Positions 100 to 48,507 of a DNA stretch of 64,000 bases are shown here, piece by piece; the first letter of the stretch is position 1; each line of letters starts with the position of its first letter. The stretch comes from a virus. The translations under genes were made by a program, and so were the position numbers. The notes beneath the pieces were generated by a model. It was not told the origin of the DNA, ran no database searches, and worked only from the letters and a program-made list of their open reading frames with translations. The stretch lies in the IMG/VR virus record IMGVR_UViG_3300035208_003482; one strand, 5' to 3'.

Positions 100-987
100 T
101 TACTGTATTCCCAACTCCGCCTGCACCGCGCTTCTATTAACTAATTCAGATTCATACATTTTATACTTTTCAAATTTTCGTTTAAGTCTCAAATCAATTT
201 CATTATCATATAGAGTATTTAAAAACTTAAAACACTTACTACCTCTCCAGGTAAGTGTATCTCTCCAAAGATATCCGCCAAAACGATCTTGTATTGATTT
301 TAACAAATCATATGATAATGATTTTATAAAACACTGTGGTTGTCTATGTGATGTGTGAGATACACAACCATCACCATCAAAAATACCCCTAACAAAATAA
401 ACATCAAGATCAGTTGGTATGTCTGGATATTTTACAATATCACACTTTCTACCAAACGGTATTTGTAGAAGCTTAGCAAGATCTAATGCTATTTGCTTGG
501 AATCAACGCGCATTACAACCATACCTCTTTTATTGTATGATAAATGAGCATCGTTATTAAATAATAACTTTGATAATGTTTTCAATACATCCGAATCAGA
601 ACCAAGTATTTGAATTACGAAACCTCTTTTAGCTACATGACCATCACTTGCAATCCAGCCAAGTGCATAAGCCTTGGCTGGACTATCTATTACAGAAAAT
701 ACATTATCATCAATAAGATGATGTTTTGTATTTGGATTTAATCTACCAGAAGCTTTTAAATGACGAGAACACTGTAAACACAACAAATCACCATTATTGG
801 TTTTAGTATGTTTTAGATAATCCCTAAACTGAATTTCATATTCAAATCTACAATTTGGGGATTTCCCACTATCACATCTCACTAAAAACTTCTTATGAGA
901 ATTTCGTGGCACATCAGCCAGTTGATCCAAAACCTCCTGACCTGACAGCAGCTCTCCTTTCACATAAAGCATTAAAATCCTCCGCAC
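100..987 (-). CDS. Free-standing LAGLIDADG homing endonuclease
   Basis: Two LAGLIDADG-type motifs ('AYALGWIASDGHV', 'YFVRGIFDGDGCV'). N-terminus overlaps the 3' end of the upstream dUTPase gene. Confidence 0.6.
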   Translation of the reverse strand: MRRILMLYVKGELLSGQEVLDQLADVPRNSHKKFLVRCDSGKSPNCRFEYEIQFRDYLKHTKTNNGDLLCLQCSRHLKASGRLNPNTKHHLIDDNVFSVIDSPAKAYALGWIASDGHVAKRGFVIQILGSDSDVLKTLSKLLFNNDAHLSYNKRGMVVMRVDSKQIALDLAKLLQIPFGRKCDIVKYPDIPTDLDVYFVRGIFDGDGCVSHTSHRQPQCFIKSLSYDLLKSIQDRFGGYLWRDTLTWRGSKCFKFLNTLYDNEIDLRLKRKFEKYKMYESELVNRSAVQAELGIQ

Positions 988-2143: not shown

Positions 2144-2401
2144 TTATCCTAAAAGGGCCTTGATAGCTTTCAAACGACGCTCTGGATTATCAGCGGTACA
2201 GCGGGCGATTAAAACTACTTCATCAAGAAGTTCTGCGGCTGATGAGAAATTATCTTCAACTGTCTTACTTAAACAAGATTTGCAAATTGTTATAGGTCCA
2301 GTAAAGCCTGCAACTTTAACTGTTTTTAAGTCAGTCTCAAAGTGTTCAGTGCCACAAGCTTGGCAGTTGATGGATACTGGGTCAGTCTCGATCTCGAACA
2401 T
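2144..2401 (-). CDS. Small zinc-ribbon protein
   Basis: 'CQACGTEH...CKSC' Cys pairs. Confidence 0.3.
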   Translation of the reverse strand: MFEIETDPVSINCQACGTEHFETDLKTVKVAGFTGPITICKSCLSKTVEDNFSSAAELLDEVVLIARCTADNPERRLKAIKALLG

Positions 2402-2600
2402 GATTCACCACCAGAGTGAACTACCATTACCTAAAGGTAAGGGCTTCCTATCGAACTTACGTTCTCAAGGCGTTTTAATTCGGTCTGTTCCATACCGAAT
2501 TTTAATACATTTATTGCTGCGTTAACATCTCTATCATGTTCCTTACCACATGATTTGCATTTCCATTCTCTTTCTTCTAACTTCAACTCTGTATTTATAT
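2396..2600 (-). ncRNA. Candidate omega-RNA (scaffold overlapping the tnpB 3' end, terminal hairpin, 'GGTAGTTCAC' end, then ~20-nt guide at 2396..2415)
   Basis: Sense strand '...GGAAGCCCTTACCTTTAGGTAATGGTAGTTCAC|TCTGGTGGTGAATCATGTTC'. Same terminal block as the other two TnpB loci with a different downstream sequence. Boundaries are approximate. Confidence 0.4.
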
Positions 2601-3576
2601 TACCACATTCTGAACATTTCTTAGAACTTGGCTCATATCTTCCTATCTTTATTAATCTCTTCCCATTCCATAAGGCTTTGTATTCTAACATTACTACAAA
2701 TGTGCTCCAAGAAACATCTCCGATATTTCTTGACATAGATGTATAAGACTTTTCCATTAGAGATTTTATATCAAGATCTTCTGTTATTATTACGTGGTTA
2801 TTGTTAACAATATCTTTAGATACTTTATGTAGAAAATCATCTCTTTTGTTACAAATCTTTTCATGCAATATAGCAATTTTATACTTTATGTTTCGGTAAT
2901 TAGAAGAACCTTTAATTTTTGTAGATAAAACCTTTTGTAAGGCTTTTAATTTCTTTAAGGATTTATGATAGAATTTAGGATTCTGTATTTTGTTTCCATT
3001 AGAGAAAGTTACAAATGTCTTTATTCCTAAATCTATTCCTATATTCTTATCTCCAGGAATTATGTTAGGTAATTCTTCTTTATTATCTACAAGAACGGAT
3101 ATGTAATACTTATTAGTACAAGTTTTTGAAATTGTACAAGTTTTAATTGTACCTTCAAAAGTTCTATGAAATTTAGCTTTAATTGTACCAATTTTAGGAA
3201 TACTAACGTGAGAATCTTTAAAGTTAACTTTAACAAATTGGGGAAGGGAAAATGATTGTTTAGAATATTTGGACTTAAAAGAAGGGAATTTATTTTGGTT
3301 CTTGAAGAATCTTTTATATGCTGAATCAAGATGTCTCAAGCTTTGTTGCAAAGCTTGAGAAGGTGCATCTTGTAACCAAATGAATTCCTCTTTAAGATCT
3401 TTTAGAAAAGAAGTTGCTAATTCATTATAAGAGATAGACTTTTTCTCAGAATCATAAACAGATTTCTTATGTTCGAGAGCTTTATTATATAAGAACCTGC
3501 AAGAGCCAAAAGCTCTTGCCAACTCTTCCGATTGGGAAGAAGTAGGGTAGATTCTATATTTGAAAGCTTTAAGCAT
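2431..3576 (-). CDS. tnpB: TnpB (IS200/IS605 OrfB-type RNA-guided endonuclease). RuvC triad present.
   Basis: N-terminus 'MLKAFKYRIYPT...ELARAFGSCRFLYNKAL'. RuvC-I 'DLGIKTF', RuvC-II 'ITEDLDIK', Zn finger 'CSECGN...CKSCGKEHDRDVNAAINV'. Confidence 0.8.
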   Translation of the reverse strand: MLKAFKYRIYPTSSQSEELARAFGSCRFLYNKALEHKKSVYDSEKKSISYNELATSFLKDLKEEFIWLQDAPSQALQQSLRHLDSAYKRFFKNQNKFPSFKSKYSKQSFSLPQFVKVNFKDSHVSIPKIGTIKAKFHRTFEGTIKTCTISKTCTNKYYISVLVDNKEELPNIIPGDKNIGIDLGIKTFVTFSNGNKIQNPKFYHKSLKKLKALQKVLSTKIKGSSNYRNIKYKIAILHEKICNKRDDFLHKVSKDIVNNNHVIITEDLDIKSLMEKSYTSMSRNIGDVSWSTFVVMLEYKALWNGKRLIKIGRYEPSSKKCSECGNINTELKLEEREWKCKSCGKEHDRDVNAAINVLKFGMEQTELKRLENVSSIGSPYL

Positions 3577-3700
3577 GTGTAATATTATGGATAAGATTAG
3601 TATTTCTCGACTTGAGAATAGAACGGCAATTCATCCCCCCGCCTAAAGGCAGGGGTCTTCTTGCACCACCAGAATAAAGGAATATTCAAATATCCCTATA

Positions 3701-4204
3701 TCACGGACGGAGATCGTCCTCTTTAACAAGTTCAAGAGTATTATTCTCTTTTATAATATAACAATTAACACCTGAAGATATTAACATTTCTAGTGATAAT
3801 TTATGTGTTTCGTAAGACCTTTCTCTAAAACCACGAGCACTTTCAGATTTATCTTCTGGATAAAAAAGTGATATAATACCAGATTGAATTATACCTCTTG
3901 CACAATCAGGACATGGAAAATGTGTACAATACATTTCACATCCTTCAAGAGATACTCCTATACGAGCTGCATGATAGAGACAATTTCTCTCGGAATGTTC
4001 TGTATAAACATATTTTAATGGACGTTCATACCTCTCTTCAATATCATCATCAACACCGCGAGGGAATCCATTATATCCAGTAGAACGAATCTCTCGATTT
4101 GGCCCTACAGCTACAGCTCCAACTTTTGTACTACGATCTTTAGACCAAGACGCAATATGCTTGGCTAGTTCAATAAACCTGAGATGCCATTTTGTTAATT
4201 TCAT
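3701..4204 (-). CDS. dCMP deaminase (zinc-dependent)
   Basis: 'HSERNCLYHAAR' (HxE) and 'PCPDCA' (PCxxC) zinc-binding motifs. Confidence 0.75.
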   Translation of the reverse strand: MKLTKWHLRFIELAKHIASWSKDRSTKVGAVAVGPNREIRSTGYNGFPRGVDDDIEERYERPLKYVYTEHSERNCLYHAARIGVSLEGCEMYCTHFPCPDCARGIIQSGIISLFYPEDKSESARGFRERSYETHKLSLEMLISSGVNCYIIKENNTLELVKEDDLRP

Positions 4205-4706
4205 GTCTTGTTACACCTGGAAAATAGACTTCCCAATCTGGATGAATTTCTTGTAGAACAGAATACTCTAGACCTAACGCATCAGGAGGTGCCATTGGTT
4301 TACTCAACAACTTCAAACCAGCCTCTTCAGGAGTCCTATTACTCTTGGCCGCATTGACTTCAAGAGAAGCTGTTACACAATTCTCCCATGTGCTTTTACC
4401 ACCTCTCGATTTTGGAAGAATATGATCAACAGTTAATTGAGATGGCGGAAGGATTTTTCCAGTATAACAACAAGTATAAAAATCCCTACGAAAAACTCCA
4501 CGAAAATTGAACCTAGGTTGTAATGGCTTTTTACGAACATAGGACTTAAGAATGATGATTGCGGGATAATCTAGTCCATCATAAAAAGACTCACCTTTCC
4601 ACTGAGAAATAACATCAGCCTTTCCTGTCATGACAAGACGAATCATTCGTCGAAATGCAACGAATGCAATTGGCTTGTATTGTCTATCAAGCAGTAGCGT
4701 TTTCAT
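4170..4706 (-). CDS. HNH endonuclease
   Basis: 'TVDHILPKSRGGKSTWENCVTA' HNH motif. Confidence 0.55.
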   Translation of the reverse strand: MKTLLLDRQYKPIAFVAFRRMIRLVMTGKADVISQWKGESFYDGLDYPAIIILKSYVRKKPLQPRFNFRGVFRRDFYTCCYTGKILPPSQLTVDHILPKSRGGKSTWENCVTASLEVNAAKSNRTPEEAGLKLLSKPMAPPDALGLEYSVLQEIHPDWEVYFPGVTRHEINKMASQVY

Positions 4707-14728: not shown

Positions 14729-15130
14729 ATGGTTATAGCAAAAAGAAAAGCAATCTCCCCTTTAGCAGATCCTTTCAATATGTTTGAAGCTCTATTTGCA
14801 GATCCTTTTACTGACAGGACCGATGGAGTGTCACTCAAAACTCTCGTTGAAAGTATCGACAACAATTATGTTTTCACTTTAGAACTTCCTGGTTTTGATG
14901 AAAACGAAATTGATATACAGGTTCGCAATGGTCAGCTTCAGATTGTTGCTGAACACAAAGACACAAATGGTAAGTTCTTCCATACATGTGTCCAACGTAC
15001 TTGGTCATTGCCTGAACCAGTAGATCAGGATAATGTTGAGGCTATCTTGAAAAATGGTGTCTTAACAGTTAAAGTGCCAAAAAAGATCGTAGAAAAAGTT
15101 AAGAAGATAGCTGTAAAGACAGCTGAATAA
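14729..15130 (+). CDS. Small heat-shock protein (Hsp20/alpha-crystallin family)
   Basis: Alpha-crystallin domain '...VFTLELPGFDENEIDIQVRNGQLQIVAEHK...GVLTVKVPK'. SD 'AGGAGGTGA' 3 nt before the ATG. Confidence 0.8.
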   Translation: MVIAKRKAISPLADPFNMFEALFADPFTDRTDGVSLKTLVESIDNNYVFTLELPGFDENEIDIQVRNGQLQIVAEHKDTNGKFFHTCVQRTWSLPEPVDQDNVEAILKNGVLTVKVPKKIVEKVKKIAVKTAE

Positions 15131-15131
15131 G

Positions 15132-15157
15132 AAAAGGCCGGGTTCGCCCGGCCTTTT
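15132..15157. terminator. Rho-independent terminator (bidirectional; serves hsp20 and the converging minus-strand gene)
   Basis: 'AAAAGGCCGGGTTCGCCCGGCCTTTT'. Confidence 0.65.
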
Positions 15158-15344
15158 ACTTTAAATCATTAGAAAGCTTTTCAAAATGATGATCGTTCCA
15201 TGTCTTATGAAAATCACATAGTACCAAGATATCACCTCTAACACCTAAATCAAAAGCTTCTTGTACATTCTCTGCCTTATCCCATCGACATCCACATTGG
15301 TATTCATCATTAGATATTTTACATCTAAGTAGTTTATCACTCAT
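15156..15344 (-). CDS. Hypothetical small Cys-containing protein
   Basis: ORF. Confidence 0.25.
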   Translation of the reverse strand: MSDKLLRCKISNDEYQCGCRWDKAENVQEAFDLGVRGDILVLCDFHKTWNDHHFEKLSNDLK

Positions 15345-38410: not shown

Positions 38411-38485
38411 GTATCTATACTGAAAAATGCGTAACACAACATATTTTTACAAAAACCTATCAATTTTGTAGGATACTTATAAGTT

Positions 38486-39682
38486 ATGTCGTTCAAAGCG
38501 TTTCGATACAGAATCTATCCATCAAAAGAACAAGAAGCTTTTCTTGCTAAATCTTTTGGCTGCAATCGCTTTGTCTTTAATTTCTTCCTCAATAGAAGAA
38601 AACAAGAATATACTAATTCTAAAAACAACTTGAATTATTATGATCTTGCTAAAGAACTTACTCAACTAAAACAACGACAAGAATTTTCTTGGCTTAATGA
38701 TGTTAATTCTCAGATGTTGCAAAGCTCTCTTCGTAACATCGAAACTGCTTATACCAAATTCTTTACCAAACAGAATAAGTTTCCTAGATTCAAAAGCAAG
38801 AAGAATGAACAATGCTTTAAAATTCCACAAGCATTCTCTATAGAAGATGGTTTACTTTGGATACCTAAACTAAAATCCGGAATCAAAATTCGTCTTCATT
38901 CTCCTATTGGTGGTAAATTTGTATCTTGTTGTATTCGTAAAACTTGTTCTGGAAAGTATTATGCAAGTATTCAAACAGAACTTGAAATTGCTAAACTTCC
39001 ATTAAGTAATAATAAGGTTGGTTTAGATCTTGGAATCAAACATCTTATTACTGATTCAAATGGTAACAAGATTGATAATCTAAAAGCTTACAAATCCAAA
39101 CAAAAGAAATTAGCTTATAGAAGCAAACAACTGAGTAAGAAACAAAAAGGATCTTCAAATAGAAATAAAGCAAGAATATTGCTTGCTTTGATTCATGAAA
39201 AGATTTCAAACATAAGAAAAGATTACTTACACAAATTAAGTCATAAGATAGTTAGCGATAACCAAGTTATTATCTGTGAAGATTTAAGTGTAATCAAAAT
39301 GATGAAGAATCATAATCTTTCTAAGAGTATTGTAGATGCTTCTTGGGGAGAGTTGTTAAGGCAACTTGAATACAAATCAGAATGGTATGGAAGAACGTTT
39401 TATAAGATTGATAAATACTTTCCATCAAGTAAGATGTGTAATCAATGTAATTATGTTCTTCAAGATATGGAGCTTAAGGTTAGAGAATGGGAATGTCCAA
39501 AATGTCATGCAAAGCATGATAGGGACAAGAATGCAGCCAATAATATATTGGAACAAGGCTTAAAAGATTTGGGTTTATGGAACGTAATCCCAGAGAAGAA
39601 TTCTGAAAAGGATTCTTTGAAACAAAAACTTGGGGAGGCGCTATCAGTTGATAGGTCTGAGAACCAAGAAACTATTGCTTAA
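38486..39682 (+). CDS. tnpB: TnpB (IS200/IS605 OrfB-type RNA-guided endonuclease)
   Basis: 'MSFKAFRYRIYPS...FGCNRFVFN', 'DLGIKHL', 'ICEDLSV', 'CNQCN...CPKCHAKHDRDKNAANNI'. Confidence 0.8.
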   Translation: MSFKAFRYRIYPSKEQEAFLAKSFGCNRFVFNFFLNRRKQEYTNSKNNLNYYDLAKELTQLKQRQEFSWLNDVNSQMLQSSLRNIETAYTKFFTKQNKFPRFKSKKNEQCFKIPQAFSIEDGLLWIPKLKSGIKIRLHSPIGGKFVSCCIRKTCSGKYYASIQTELEIAKLPLSNNKVGLDLGIKHLITDSNGNKIDNLKAYKSKQKKLAYRSKQLSKKQKGSSNRNKARILLALIHEKISNIRKDYLHKLSHKIVSDNQVIICEDLSVIKMMKNHNLSKSIVDASWGELLRQLEYKSEWYGRTFYKIDKYFPSSKMCNQCNYVLQDMELKVREWECPKCHAKHDRDKNAANNILEQGLKDLGLWNVIPEKNSEKDSLKQKLGEALSVDRSENQETIA

Positions 39683-39718
39683 AGCATTGGTAGTTCACAC
39701 TGAAAATTGCCTACTTAC
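39520..39718 (+). ncRNA. Candidate omega-RNA for the second TnpB (scaffold ends 'GGTAGTTCAC' at 39689-39698; guide about 39699-39718)
   Basis: '...GCTTAAAGCATTGGTAGTTCAC|ACTGAAAATTGCCTACTTAC'. The guide overlaps the 3' end of the converging phosphatase gene. Boundaries are approximate. Confidence 0.4.
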
Positions 39719-42511: not shown

Positions 42512-42973
42512 ATGGCCCATAGTATCCGTCTGTTAATAAATAGATTGTATGATGCTAAAATCAGAAAGATAAATGATTATCAGCATAAAGTCTCGAAGAG
42601 ACTTGGTTCAACATATGATACAATCTATGCAGAAGATCTTTCTGTCAAAACAATGTCAGAAAGTAAGTTCAAGAACCTAAATAAAGCATTACGAAATGCT
42701 AAACTGTCGCAATTCTTATTATTCTTAGGATATAAGAGTAAGAAATTAGTACTAGTAAATCCAAAGAATACATCAAAAACATGTAATACATGTGGAAAGG
42801 TACATGATATAAAGTTATCAGATAGGATAATATCGTGTAGTTGTGGGAGTGTATATGATAGAGATGAGAATGCGGCAAGAAATATTTATTGCTTGGGACA
42901 AGCTATTGAGGATAATCCTCAATATGTTGGATCGTTAACGATCCAAGAAGCCCTTGCCTTTAGGCATGGGTAG
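42512..42973 (+). pseudogene. N-terminally truncated TnpB remnant (RuvC-II, Zn finger and RuvC-III only) retaining the conserved 3' end and omega-RNA terminus
   Basis: 'YAEDLSVK', 'CNTCGK...CSCGSVYDRDENAARNI'. Lacks the RuvC-I Asp and the N-terminal half. Ends 'GGGTAGTTCAC' at 42969-42978. Confidence 0.6.
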
Positions 42974-43094
42974 TTCACTATAGTCTAGGTACCTAACTTT
43001 GGATGCATGTTCTCCAGAAAGAATATATGTTCTACCAAAGTAAGTACCTACACCAGATGGTACGTCTTCTATAAACGTAAACAGATTTGGCTGC

Positions 43095-47730: not shown

Positions 47731-48507
47731 ATGGATGGTTATTTCAAAACACAAGAATGTTTAGAATATTTTTGCGGGTTAGTCATTTCTGATGGTCATA
47801 TGAGGAAAAGTACCAGAAACAGAGGTTGTGTAAGCATTGAATTGAAAGATACCGATTCTGACATTTTAAGTAAGTTAAAGAATGAAATTCTTGTAAATTC
47901 AACATTAAGAAATCGTACAAGATCTTCAAACTTTTCAAATTCATTTTCCAGTAGAACTCTTAATGTTTTTGATAAAGGATTTAGAGATTTTATCGAAACT
48001 CTTGGAGTTCCTTATGGAAAGAAAAATGATGTCATTATTCCTGAATGGTTTAAGTTCAACTCCAATTTTTGGAGAGGTATGATTGATGGTGATGGATCGT
48101 TGGGTTTAGTAAAAAAAGGATATTGTTTCGTATCTTTGATAACAAAAAGTGAAAGTGTTGCAACTTCTTATATGTCTCTTGTTTCTGGAATTATAGGTAG
48201 GTCTGTTAATGCAAATAGAAATAAACGAGATTCTGTTTATAACATAACCGTTTCAAATGAAGACGCTAAGAGATTGGTTAATTGGCTTAATTATTCTTCT
48301 GATTTATCTCTTAATCGTAAAAGGAACAAAGCAAAAGAAGTTCTAAGTTGGAAAAGGCCACATGGAATGAGAAGAGCTCATAGACAAAAACGATGGTCTA
48401 AACAAGAAGATGATTACATTTTATCTCACTCACTAAGTGATTCTGTTAACAATCTTAAAAGAACAGAGATGAGTATTAAGATGCGTCTGTGGCGTCTTAA
48501 GAACTAG
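47731..48507 (+). CDS. Free-standing LAGLIDADG homing endonuclease
   Basis: 'YFCGLVISDGHM', 'FWRGMIDGDGSL'. Opposite strand to the flanking genes. Confidence 0.55.
   Translation: MDGYFKTQECLEYFCGLVISDGHMRKSTRNRGCVSIELKDTDSDILSKLKNEILVNSTLRNRTRSSNFSNSFSSRTLNVFDKGFRDFIETLGVPYGKKNDVIIPEWFKFNSNFWRGMIDGDGSLGLVKKGYCFVSLITKSESVATSYMSLVSGIIGRSVNANRNKRDSVYNITVSNEDAKRLVNWLNYSSDLSLNRKRNKAKEVLSWKRPHGMRRAHRQKRWSKQEDDYILSHSLSDSVNNLKRTEMSIKMRLWRLKN

Follow-up and report, generated by a model that had tools for sequence, protein, structure and literature searches.

The 64,000-nt stretch of the IMG/VR virus record IMGVR_UViG_3300035208_003482 analysed here, hereafter the window, holds three loci related to tnpB, the gene of the RNA-guided nuclease TnpB (Table 1). 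Loci 1 and 2 carry full-length genes and locus 3 a truncated one, and the 3' end of each frame is marked by the same 10-nt sequence, GGTAGTTCAC, which occurs exactly three times in the window, at 2416-2425(-), 39689-39698(+) and 42969-42978(+). Comparison of this terminal block with right ends from viral metagenomes indicates that it is probably both the right end of a TnpB transposon and the end of an omega-RNA scaffold, followed by a locus-specific guide. In addition, the first bases of the guide recur at the left end of each element, directly after its target-adjacent motif (TAM).

Three tnpB loci and their ends

Both full-length proteins match the Pfam families HTH_OrfB_IS605, OrfB_IS605 and Cas12f1-like_TNB above all curated cut-offs; at locus 3, TNB scores above its cut-off and OrfB_IS605, with 21.5 bits, below the cut-off of 30.5 bits. 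The locus 1 protein is closely homologous to ISDra2 TnpB, whose solved structure it matches at E 1.9e-70, with the GxDLG, EDL and HDRD motifs in alignment. In the ISDra2 alignment the RuvC D-E-D triad is intact at loci 1 and 2, and RuvC-I is absent from locus 3 of the window. Protein identity amounts to 43% between loci 1 and 2 and 33% between loci 1 and 3, the 10-nt terminus being common to all. TnpB is common among phages, and homologues are present in 197 isolated phage records. No tnpA adjoins any of the three loci, and in terms of sequence the elements are three different tnpB-only, non-autonomous insertions of the IS200/IS605 family (IS1341 group).

The first-pass annotation of this DNA had counted three TnpB loci. 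Each block does close a TnpB frame, although the gene at locus 3 is truncated. An intact allele is present in the 99%-identical JGI strain 3300037067 (L239; L numbers label the compared sequences), where a single molecule carries a 374-aa tnpB with three RuvC motifs between the left end ...caaccTTAA/TATAGTC GTGCAAGAAATCCCCTTGCTTTAGCTGGGTTATGAATTGCCG... and the right end ...CCAAGAAGCCCTTGCCTTTAGGCATGGGTAGTTCAC/TATAGTC TAGGTACC (slashes mark element boundaries). The right-end flank is the same as that of locus 3 in the window. Here, 847 bp (L239 12065-12911) have been deleted with a 2-nt microhomology at the junction, about 42535/42536, so that part of the flank is lost along with the left end and 228 codons; the deleted form also occurs in several other assemblies. 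Locus 3 in the window is a dead remnant without a nuclease and could supply an orphan RNA at most.

The end sequences quoted in the first-pass annotation are correct at all three loci, and its description of an identical hairpin in front of them holds in part. The last 10 nt are identical everywhere, but the stem of locus 2 is shorter and degenerate. The 8-bp hairpin with one mismatch is found at loci 1 and 3 (CCCTTACC with GGTAATGG and CCCTTGCC with GGCATGGG), whereas the stem of locus 2 has five positions, one of them mismatched. When up to one mismatch was allowed, GGTAGTTCAC was found at nine sites against 2.3 expected, a number reached in 0 of 100 shuffles. Hairpin and tnpB are absent beside the six one-mismatch sites, and no additional TnpB-end copies were found in the window.

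The three frames stop at different positions of the block: the frame of locus 1 ends with a TAG located in the loop of its hairpin (2431-2433), that of locus 2 with a TAA in its short loop (39680-39682) and that of locus 3 with a TAG within GGTAGTTCAC (42971-42973). The block thus overlaps the last tnpB codons, as had been pointed out, but the overlap is incidental: stop positions and frames differ among the loci, and the constraint therefore lies on nucleotides, not on codons. TAG is present in two frames of the right end, in the TTTAGG loop and in GTAGTT (window 2424-2443 and 42951-42978; 43 right ends), which is why differing tnpB frames all end inside the block.

On the other side, the locus 1 element extends over 1258 bp (3673-2416), with 18 nt from motif to hairpin at the left and 8 nt from hairpin to end at the right; in IS608 the corresponding spacings are about 19 nt and 10 nt, similar to locus 1. 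Its left end, 3678-3623(-), reads TTTAT/TCTGGTGGTG CAAGAAGA (CCCCTGCC TTTAGG CGGGGGG) ATGAATTGCCG, with the hairpin in parentheses, and related left ends have TTAT, TTTAA, TTAA or TTAC at the motif position. The relatives of locus 2 with 59-60% identity start with TTTAT/ACTGAA.. in L244 and TTTAT/ACTACA.. in L246 (longer quotes, ACTGAATTGAC and ACTACATGTCG). The nearest relatives of locus 2 are at most 60% identical, so that its left-end boundary is a provisional one. Locus 1 and, in L239, locus 3 have a subterminal hairpin at either end and lack terminal inverted repeats; at locus 2 the right-end stem is short and the left-end hairpin weakly recognisable. Copies at different sites diverge exactly at their ends, as seen at four sites for the lineage starting with CCTGATC and at two each for those starting with CGATATC, TCCGTTG and GATTAAC.

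A genome scan with the left-end pattern returned mostly right ends from Phormidium and Methanoculleus and few new pairs of left and right ends. Another, highly multi-copy TnpB family is present in Phormidium pseudopriestleyi FRX01 (L176-L230) and Methanoculleus (L185-L219), with ends of the form GTGCAAGAATCCCC-hairpin-GGGAGTGTCAA/. In this family the GTGCAAGAA-hairpin module makes up the right end, whereas it makes up the left end of the phage elements. Methanoculleus copies are identical up to the hairpin and then continue with either GATGAATTGC, of the phage left-end type, or GAGTGTCAA, of the right-end type.

Table 1. Positions of the tnpB loci, their ends and further features in the 64-kb window.
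Feature	Position	Strand	Description
Locus 1 tnpB	2431-3576	-	381 aa; RuvC motifs GIDLG, TEDL and HDRD present
Locus 1 TAM	3674-3678	-	TTTAT; 18 nt 5' of the left-end hairpin
Locus 1 left end	3623-3673	-	TCTGGTGGTG (3664-3673), CAAGAAGA (3656-3663), hairpin CCCCTGCCTTTAGGCGGGGGG (3635-3655), GATGAATTGCCG
Locus 1 right end	2416-2448	-	GAAG, putative DNA guide (2444-2447), hairpin, tail
Locus 1 right-end hairpin	2424-2443	-	CCCTTACC (2436-2443), TTTA loop, GGTAATGG (2424-2431)
Locus 1 tail	2416-2423	-	TAGTTCAC
Locus 1 candidate guide	2396-2415	-	TCTGGTGGTGAATCATGTTC; phage DNA directly 3' of the element
Locus 1 upstream scaffold part (predicted)	2449-2510	-	Inside tnpB; stem AATTCGGT with ACCGAATT, loop AUGGAACAG
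Locus 1 candidate 5' pseudoknot strand	2487-2491		GGAAC; few codons past RuvC-III
Locus 2 tnpB	38486-39682	+	398 aa; RuvC motifs GLDLG, EDL and HDRD present
Locus 2 TAM-like motif	38414-38418	+	TCTAT
Locus 2 left-end start	38419-38433	+	ACTGAAAAATGCGTA (longer quote ACTGAAAAATGC...)
Locus 2 right end	39665-39698	+	CAAGAAACT, short stem ATTGC/GCATT (39674-39688), then GGTAGTTCAC (39689-39698)
Locus 2 candidate guide	39699-39718	+	ACTGAAAATTGCCTACTTAC; spans stop codon (39711-39713) of a minus-strand metallophosphatase gene
Locus 2 candidate 5' pseudoknot strand	39550-39554		GGAAC; few codons past RuvC-III
Locus 3 tnpB remnant	42512-42973	+	153 aa; keeps RuvC-II, zinc ribbon and RuvC-III, without RuvC-I
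Locus 3 right end	42945-42978	+	AAGAAG, CCCTTGCC (42951-42958), TTTA loop, GGCATGGG (42963-42970), TAGTTCAC (42971-42978)
Locus 3 candidate guide	42979-42998	+	TATAGTCTAGGTACCTAACT; first 7 nt TATAGTC
Locus 3 candidate 5' pseudoknot strand	42895-42899		GGGAC; few codons past RuvC-III
Further selfish-looking gene	100-987	-	
Further selfish-looking gene	4170-4706	-	
Further selfish-looking gene	about 47731-48507	+	

Right-end conservation, predicted omega-RNA scaffold and candidate guides

A scan of IMG/VR for TTTAGG-N5-GTAGTTCAC returned at least 120 stretches, in which the downstream sequence is unrelated between copies. Among the matches listed, the layout is RGAAGC, stem, CTTTAGG, second stem strand and GTAGTTCAC, then unrelated sequence. 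The boundary was compared in about 50 distinct right-end copies from viral metagenomes. An alignment of 27 sequences (250 nt plus 20 nt of flank) has an invariant AA(G), TTTAGG loop and GTAGTTCAC, with no position conserved past TTCAC, and conservation likewise ends at TTCAC in an alignment of 43 sequences (36 terminal nt and 12 nt of flank); in both, loop and tail were preset by the search pattern, and GAAG, stem and flank were free to vary. Pairwise comparison gave the same boundary. L001 and L002 carry a locus 1-type element at two sites, with 83-86% protein identity, and diverge exactly at both ends: they have in common the stretch from TTAT/CGATATCGTGCAAAG... to ...GGAGTAGTTCAC/ (in a shorter quote, TTAT/CGATATCGTG... 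to ...GTAGTTCAC/) and nothing outside it. The sister copies L047 and L076 diverge right after TTCAC. The first-pass annotation had proposed that conservation stops exactly after TTCAC, and had reasoned that a block running on beyond it in further copies would be simply coding conservation; the three loci and both alignments agree with the proposed boundary, and the block did not continue past TTCAC in the copies compared.

The 8-bp stem shows strong covariation. Standard pairs make up 93.3% of its cells versus 73.2% in shuffles, 81 stem cells are changed on both sides versus 23.9 in shuffles, and slid stem controls reach only 37-54% pairing. That the block overlaps the last codons of three frames might suggest coding conservation of the TnpB C-terminus, an explanation that we consider already refuted. 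The changes in the stem are compensatory, the stops lie at three places and in different frames so that the encoded tails differ, and proteins with only 33-43% identity have 10 identical nucleotides. Furthermore, the same block closes elements of 39-300 nt that contain no open reading frame (ORF), as in L110, L161, L031 and L088.

Mini-elements of this kind, ORF-less, palindrome-associated and 39-373 nt long, have the same end modules in L110 (1530-1590), L161/L163, L031, L088, L102, L123, L132 and L173, with L162 and L171 as further occurrences of the L110 mini-element. The smallest is a single hairpin between GTGCAAGAAGA and TAGTTCAC, and several mini-elements share large phage contigs with full tnpB copies. 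The scan pattern also matches L046 and L081, contigs labelled as giant-virus metagenome-assembled genomes (IMG/VR GVMAG), and L081 has the GAAG-stem layout, too.

The anatomy of the ends, their boundaries and their covariation are direct observations, as are the protein homology and the intact catalytic motifs of loci 1 and 2. In every copy, GAA lies at positions -32 to -30 and UUC at -5 to -3, the same register as in the ISDra2 omega-RNA. The ISDra2 RNA consists of the tnpB 3' end and the right end, and its final ~16 nt, derived from the flank, are the guide; UUC at -5 to -3 forms a pseudoknot, for which GAA at -32 to -30 is the sequence-predicted alternative partner. In the terms of Meers et al., TTCAC is the transposon-encoded motif, with which GAAG pairs as the DNA guide of the right end. 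The upstream part of the scaffold is predicted to lie inside tnpB at locus 1, where its stem covaries in L122 and L047 and the last 185 nt of the element (2416-2600) fold with z = -3.25. By analogy with ISDra2, GGAAC in the loop of this locus 1 stem might pair with GUUC of the tail as a pseudoknot, a pairing beyond the reach of covariation because the 3' strand never varies. As judged from sequence, the layout put forward in the first-pass annotation, a right end and omega-RNA scaffold followed by a guide, agrees with the data at every point of comparison, and we regard it as likely to be correct. The candidate guide of locus 1 spans the Shine-Dalgarno-like GGTGGTGA and the ATG (2399-2401) of the ORF at 2144-2401.

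These features enable us to propose a putative mechanism, in which the right end would serve in both DNA and RNA. The right end combines a GAAG-type DNA guide with a subterminal hairpin and with the fixed tail GTAGTTCAC, of which TTCAC is a part. As DNA, its structure would be recognised by a Y1 TnpA acting in trans, which would cut after TTCAC. As RNA, the same bases would form the 3' end of the omega-RNA scaffold, with the hairpin as its last stem and GUUCA as the pseudoknot strand by the guide. Transcripts would extend past the element by about 16-20 nt, and this stretch of phage flank would be the guide. The complex of TnpB and omega-RNA would then cut genomes in which the left-flank motif (TTTAT, TTAA or TCTAT) is joined directly to the guide sequence; the predicted target is TTTAT + TCTGGTGGTGAATCAT (also written TCTGGTGGTGAATCATGT) for locus 1 and TCTAT or TTTAT + ACTGAAAATTGCCTAC for locus 2. 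The allele to be cut would be element-free, originating from excision or from a co-infecting relative, and recombinational repair would reinstall the element, that is, homing. Transcription, RNA processing, cleavage and homing at the phage loci are thus steps that we infer.

Several searches came out to the disadvantage of this proposal. A Y1 TnpA or an ORF with the HUH motif was not found in the window, where the search was by motif regular expression only. The covariance-model search suggested in the first-pass annotation gave no family with Rfam at curated thresholds, and Rfam at E <= 1 over the whole window gave just three unrelated sub-threshold matches. The predicted empty site of locus 1 had 0 matches in JGI metagenome contigs, and the element-free allele is absent from the JGI contigs and from the IMG/VR searches, all strain contigs carrying the insertions; exact-protein look-ups of the flanking genes also returned only strains with insertions. 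The search for protospacers, likewise suggested earlier, yielded no match to guides 2 and 3 in IMG/VR and a single exact 19-nt match to guide 1, which was set aside. The match lies inside an unrelated 653-aa ORF and occurs twice on one contig, in paralogous copies with ATTA or GTTA ahead of it (L242 1852-1870 and L243 5477-5495; IMGVR_UViG_3300045918_000781). It is probably due to chance, as by a rough estimate about one such match is expected per collection of that size.

The lack of an Rfam family would also suit an alternative in which the block is a DNA-level right end for TnpA and the phage copies are decaying passengers that have neither a working omega-RNA nor guided cleavage. In this family, TnpA needs the hairpin and TTCAC for recognition anyway, for which reason covariation alone is no proof of an RNA role; moreover, locus 3 is already broken, and many of its relatives in the protein database are fragments. 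Decay is, however, hard to reconcile with loci 1 and 2, which are full-length with all three catalytic motifs, and with the locus 2 protein, which is identical in five assemblies from four samples. In addition, GUAGUUCAC is invariant far beyond the 4-5 nt needed for a cleavage motif and fits the ISDra2 pseudoknot register, and the regular-expression search found no TnpA in the window that could impose DNA-level selection within the phage. We therefore consider a purely DNA-level role quite unlikely.

A repeat of the guide start at the left ends

At the left end of all three elements, the first 7-12 nt of the guide are repeated after the TAM. The repeat is 10/10 at locus 1 (TTTAT/TCTGGTGGTG against TTCAC/TCTGGTGGTG) and 7/7 at locus 3, as read from one molecule in L239 (TTAA/TATAGTC against TTCAC/TATAGTC). 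At locus 2 it is 13/15, with the first 8 exact (TCTAT/ACTGAAAAATGCGTA against TTCAC/ACTGAAAATTGCCTA). The mini-element of L110, L162 and L171, which has a 39-nt core and is located on an unrelated 209-kb phage contig, shows a 7/7 repeat (TTTAT/CCTCATC against TTCAC/CCTCATC). In a fixed register, a 7-nt repeat has a chance of about 9e-5 per site and a 10-nt repeat one of about 2e-6; the comparison covered about 20 end pairs. Within the 64-kb window, guides 1 and 2 each have their best partial match at their own left-end junction, after a TAM-like motif. The flank repeat is not family-wide: an 8-nt match of the flank was found upstream of 5 of 89 right ends in IMG/VR and in 4 of 89 controls.

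The first 7 nt of left ends are hypervariable beside an invariant GTGCAAGAA, and a survey of haloarchaeal IS605-type elements also describes the terminal sequence ahead of the palindrome as highly variable. Clearly moved lineages (CCTGATC, CGATATC, TCCGTTG and GATTAAC) keep their first 7 nt at new sites, where these bases mismatch the flank. The left end of locus 3 differs from that of L104 at 2 of 52 nt and yet at 4 of the first 7 bases; given this concentration of differences at the start, the first 7 nt have been replaced rather than mutated. The repeated bases look native to the phage, the right-hand copy at locus 1 being the Shine-Dalgarno-like GGTGGTGA of the ORF at 2144-2401 and the left-hand copy in L110 being GATGAGG, 5 nt ahead of the ATG of the neighbouring gene.

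Our preferred reading, which is tentative and one possibility among several, is that the repeat is a repair scar of RNA-guided homing. TnpB makes its cut at a distance of 15-21 bp from the TAM, and the resulting ends have 5' overhangs. In the proposed course of events, an element-free allele would be cut in this way and repaired from an occupied copy. Because of the 5' overhangs, resection would leave the TAM-side end with a 3' tail of about 15 target bases. This tail would sit in register over the start of the donor left end, be trimmed until its tip pairs and then be extended, so that the product would consist of the TAM, target bases 1 to k and the left end from base k+1 onward, the start of the left end having been overwritten. 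Resident elements would gradually acquire target sequence, and a later transposition would carry along a record of the previous site. With a donor that starts with CCTGATC, a trim-back rule, by which trimming from the 3' side stops as soon as at least 2 consecutive bases match in register, reproduces all three observed left ends, with k = 10 for locus 1 and k = 7 for locus 3 and L110. Such a model would explain the change at the left end only, the retained 18-nt spacing and the hypervariable first 7 nt, as well as the presence of the repeat in resident single-site copies and its absence from recently moved ones.

Other considerations tell against a scar. The model is post hoc, with an assumed start of the donor left end. 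According to a review and to Meers et al., IS200/IS605 elements do not duplicate their target, and the left-end repeat departs from this description of the family. The repeat is absent from about 15 resolved pairs of left and right ends and from six isolated phages, and a relative with 59% identity, inserted at a different site, has the same start, ACTGAA, as locus 2. In view of the locus 2 start shared with distant relatives, and of the 6/7 likeness of L110 to the common form, it may be that the flank resembles a left end that was inherited. Accordingly, insertion might be directed to sites resembling the element's own left-end start, or the repeat might be kept for its function. An omega-RNA across a right-end/left-end junction, with the left-end start as its guide, could open sites for TnpA; a circular form could also be directed to such sites by recombination through short homology; and TAM plus a 7-12-nt seed could be bound by TnpB without cutting, for autoregulation or control of excision. 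Directed insertion or a retained function would agree with the ACT(GAA) start common to locus 2 and to L244 and L246 at other sites, with the 6/7 identity of CCTCATC in L110 to the common CCTGATC, with the 8/10 identity of the first 10 nt of locus 1 to L172/L174 and with the TAM-preceded junctions that guides 1 and 2 match best. However, a TAM with a 7-10-nt match would be expected by chance in few phage genomes, and here three different elements account for three such insertions. The first 7 nt of locus 3 are just 3/7 identical to those of near-identical relatives, the repeated bases look native, with a Shine-Dalgarno sequence at locus 1 and in L110, and no experimental precedent was found in the review or in Meers et al. 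Taken together, we judge directed insertion or retained function rather unlikely.

The repeats could also be true target-site duplications, produced by an unrecognised route of double-strand insertion, for which the bottom strand of the left end, hairpin-TCTTCTTGCAC, would have to act as a second TTCAC-like end. The repeat boundary indeed falls exactly at N7/GTGCA, that is, TGCAC/ on the bottom strand, and at locus 1 the bottom strand of the target has TTCAC/ staggered by 7 nt. The corresponding bottom-strand motif at the other two sites, however, is only TTCTA and ACCTA, so that duplication fits locus 1 only, and recently moved lineages keep their first 7 nt without a repeat, as fits ordinary single-strand transposition. 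True duplication is very improbable in our view.

Further candidate sources were rejected. The staggered cut of TnpB does not account for a repeat that abuts the TAM, as the cut site is 15-21 nt away. Selection to keep a ribosome-binding site fits L110 only. An assembly artefact is at odds with the ENA, JGI and Logan assemblies, which are identical in sequence.

Phage context and comparison with known systems

The window is identical to part of the ENA assembly contig ERZ27247350 k141_1045408 (76.6 kb), and near-identical contigs are present in one JGI and three Logan assemblies. Its genes for dCMP deaminase, dUTPase, RtcB, ClpP, HU and an MT-A70 methylase, together with HNH and LAGLIDADG-like genes, point to a portion of a large virulent (lytic-type) phage genome. 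Searches of INPHARED for close phage relatives in near and distant modes gave a 75%-identical dCMP deaminase segment as the sole match, and the best match in IMG/VR with the dCMP deaminase as query had 57% identity. The start of the dCMP deaminase gene overlaps with an ORF for an HNH endonuclease, and two ORFs have faint matches to LAGLIDADG_3; in addition to the TnpBs, the phage seems to carry several homing-type nucleases.

A 110-aa HU-like gene (Bac_DNA_binding) is called in the sister strains (L239 1427-1759 and L240 1412-1744), and no gene is called at the corresponding place in the window, about 31775-32294 (L238 1290-1809), a difference that may be a strain-specific disruption or indel. 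Rfam also gave a weak match to BSnc120 at 15095-15175(+), which scores 29.9 bits (gathering score 114; E 0.007) and is most likely due to chance. The + strand is asymmetric in composition (C 0.21 versus G 0.17), and the minus strand holds nearly all genes in the listed stretches of the window. No tRNA genes were found in the window.

The phage elements resemble ISDra2 of Deinococcus radiodurans in protein family, RuvC motifs and the GAA/UUC register around the last hairpin. They differ from it in being tnpB-only, in their TAM (TTTAT or TTAA, compared with TTGAT in ISDra2), in the tail GUAGUUCAC and in the left end that repeats the guide start. Loci 1 and 3 also seem to have shorter predicted scaffolds, in which the candidate pseudoknot strand lies at about -76 and -84, compared with -105. 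With IS605 and IS608 of Helicobacter pylori and ISGst of Geobacillus stearothermophilus they have in common the subterminal hairpins at both ends, the DNA guides 5' of the hairpins that would pair with TAM and transposon-encoded motif, the insertion 3' of motifs of the TTTAA, TTAAC or TTAC type and the ORF-less, palindrome-associated derivatives. The left end of locus 1 has the IS608-like geometry given in the review and by Meers et al. IS605, IS608 and ISGst, however, carry or adjoin tnpA and are excised scarlessly, whereas no tnpA was found with the phage elements, which have a 7-12-nt flank repeat.

As intergenic selfish nuclease genes of a large lytic phage, the elements are also reminiscent of the free-standing Seg and Mob homing endonuclease genes of T4-like phages. 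The likeness would extend to the predicted cutting of the element-free allele of a co-infecting relative and the spread by recombinational repair, and the phage guides overlap constrained signals, start or stop codons, as is usual for homing sites. In contrast to Seg and Mob, recognition would be by an RNA guide and TAM instead of a protein, and the element has transposon ends.

In summary, right end, scaffold and guide are arranged as in ISDra2, IS608 and ISGst, an established TnpB architecture that is known in kind. What this study adds are the exact ends and TAMs, a broken locus 3 with an intact sister allele, and the right-end signature GAAG-hairpin-GTAGTTCAC, which is compact and widespread and allows elements to be delimited and guides to be read without RNA data. 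For annotation, the gain is three independent RNA-guided nuclease elements in one phage, with guides that overlap the start or stop signals of neighbouring genes. The left-end repeat might be the sole part likely to surprise a specialist. If it were a homing scar, it would provide direct genomic evidence of TnpB homing in phage populations, a means to date and trace the residency of elements and a sequence-only test of homing versus transposition. If instead it reflected target choice or self-binding, it would reveal an unsuspected link between guide RNA and transposition.

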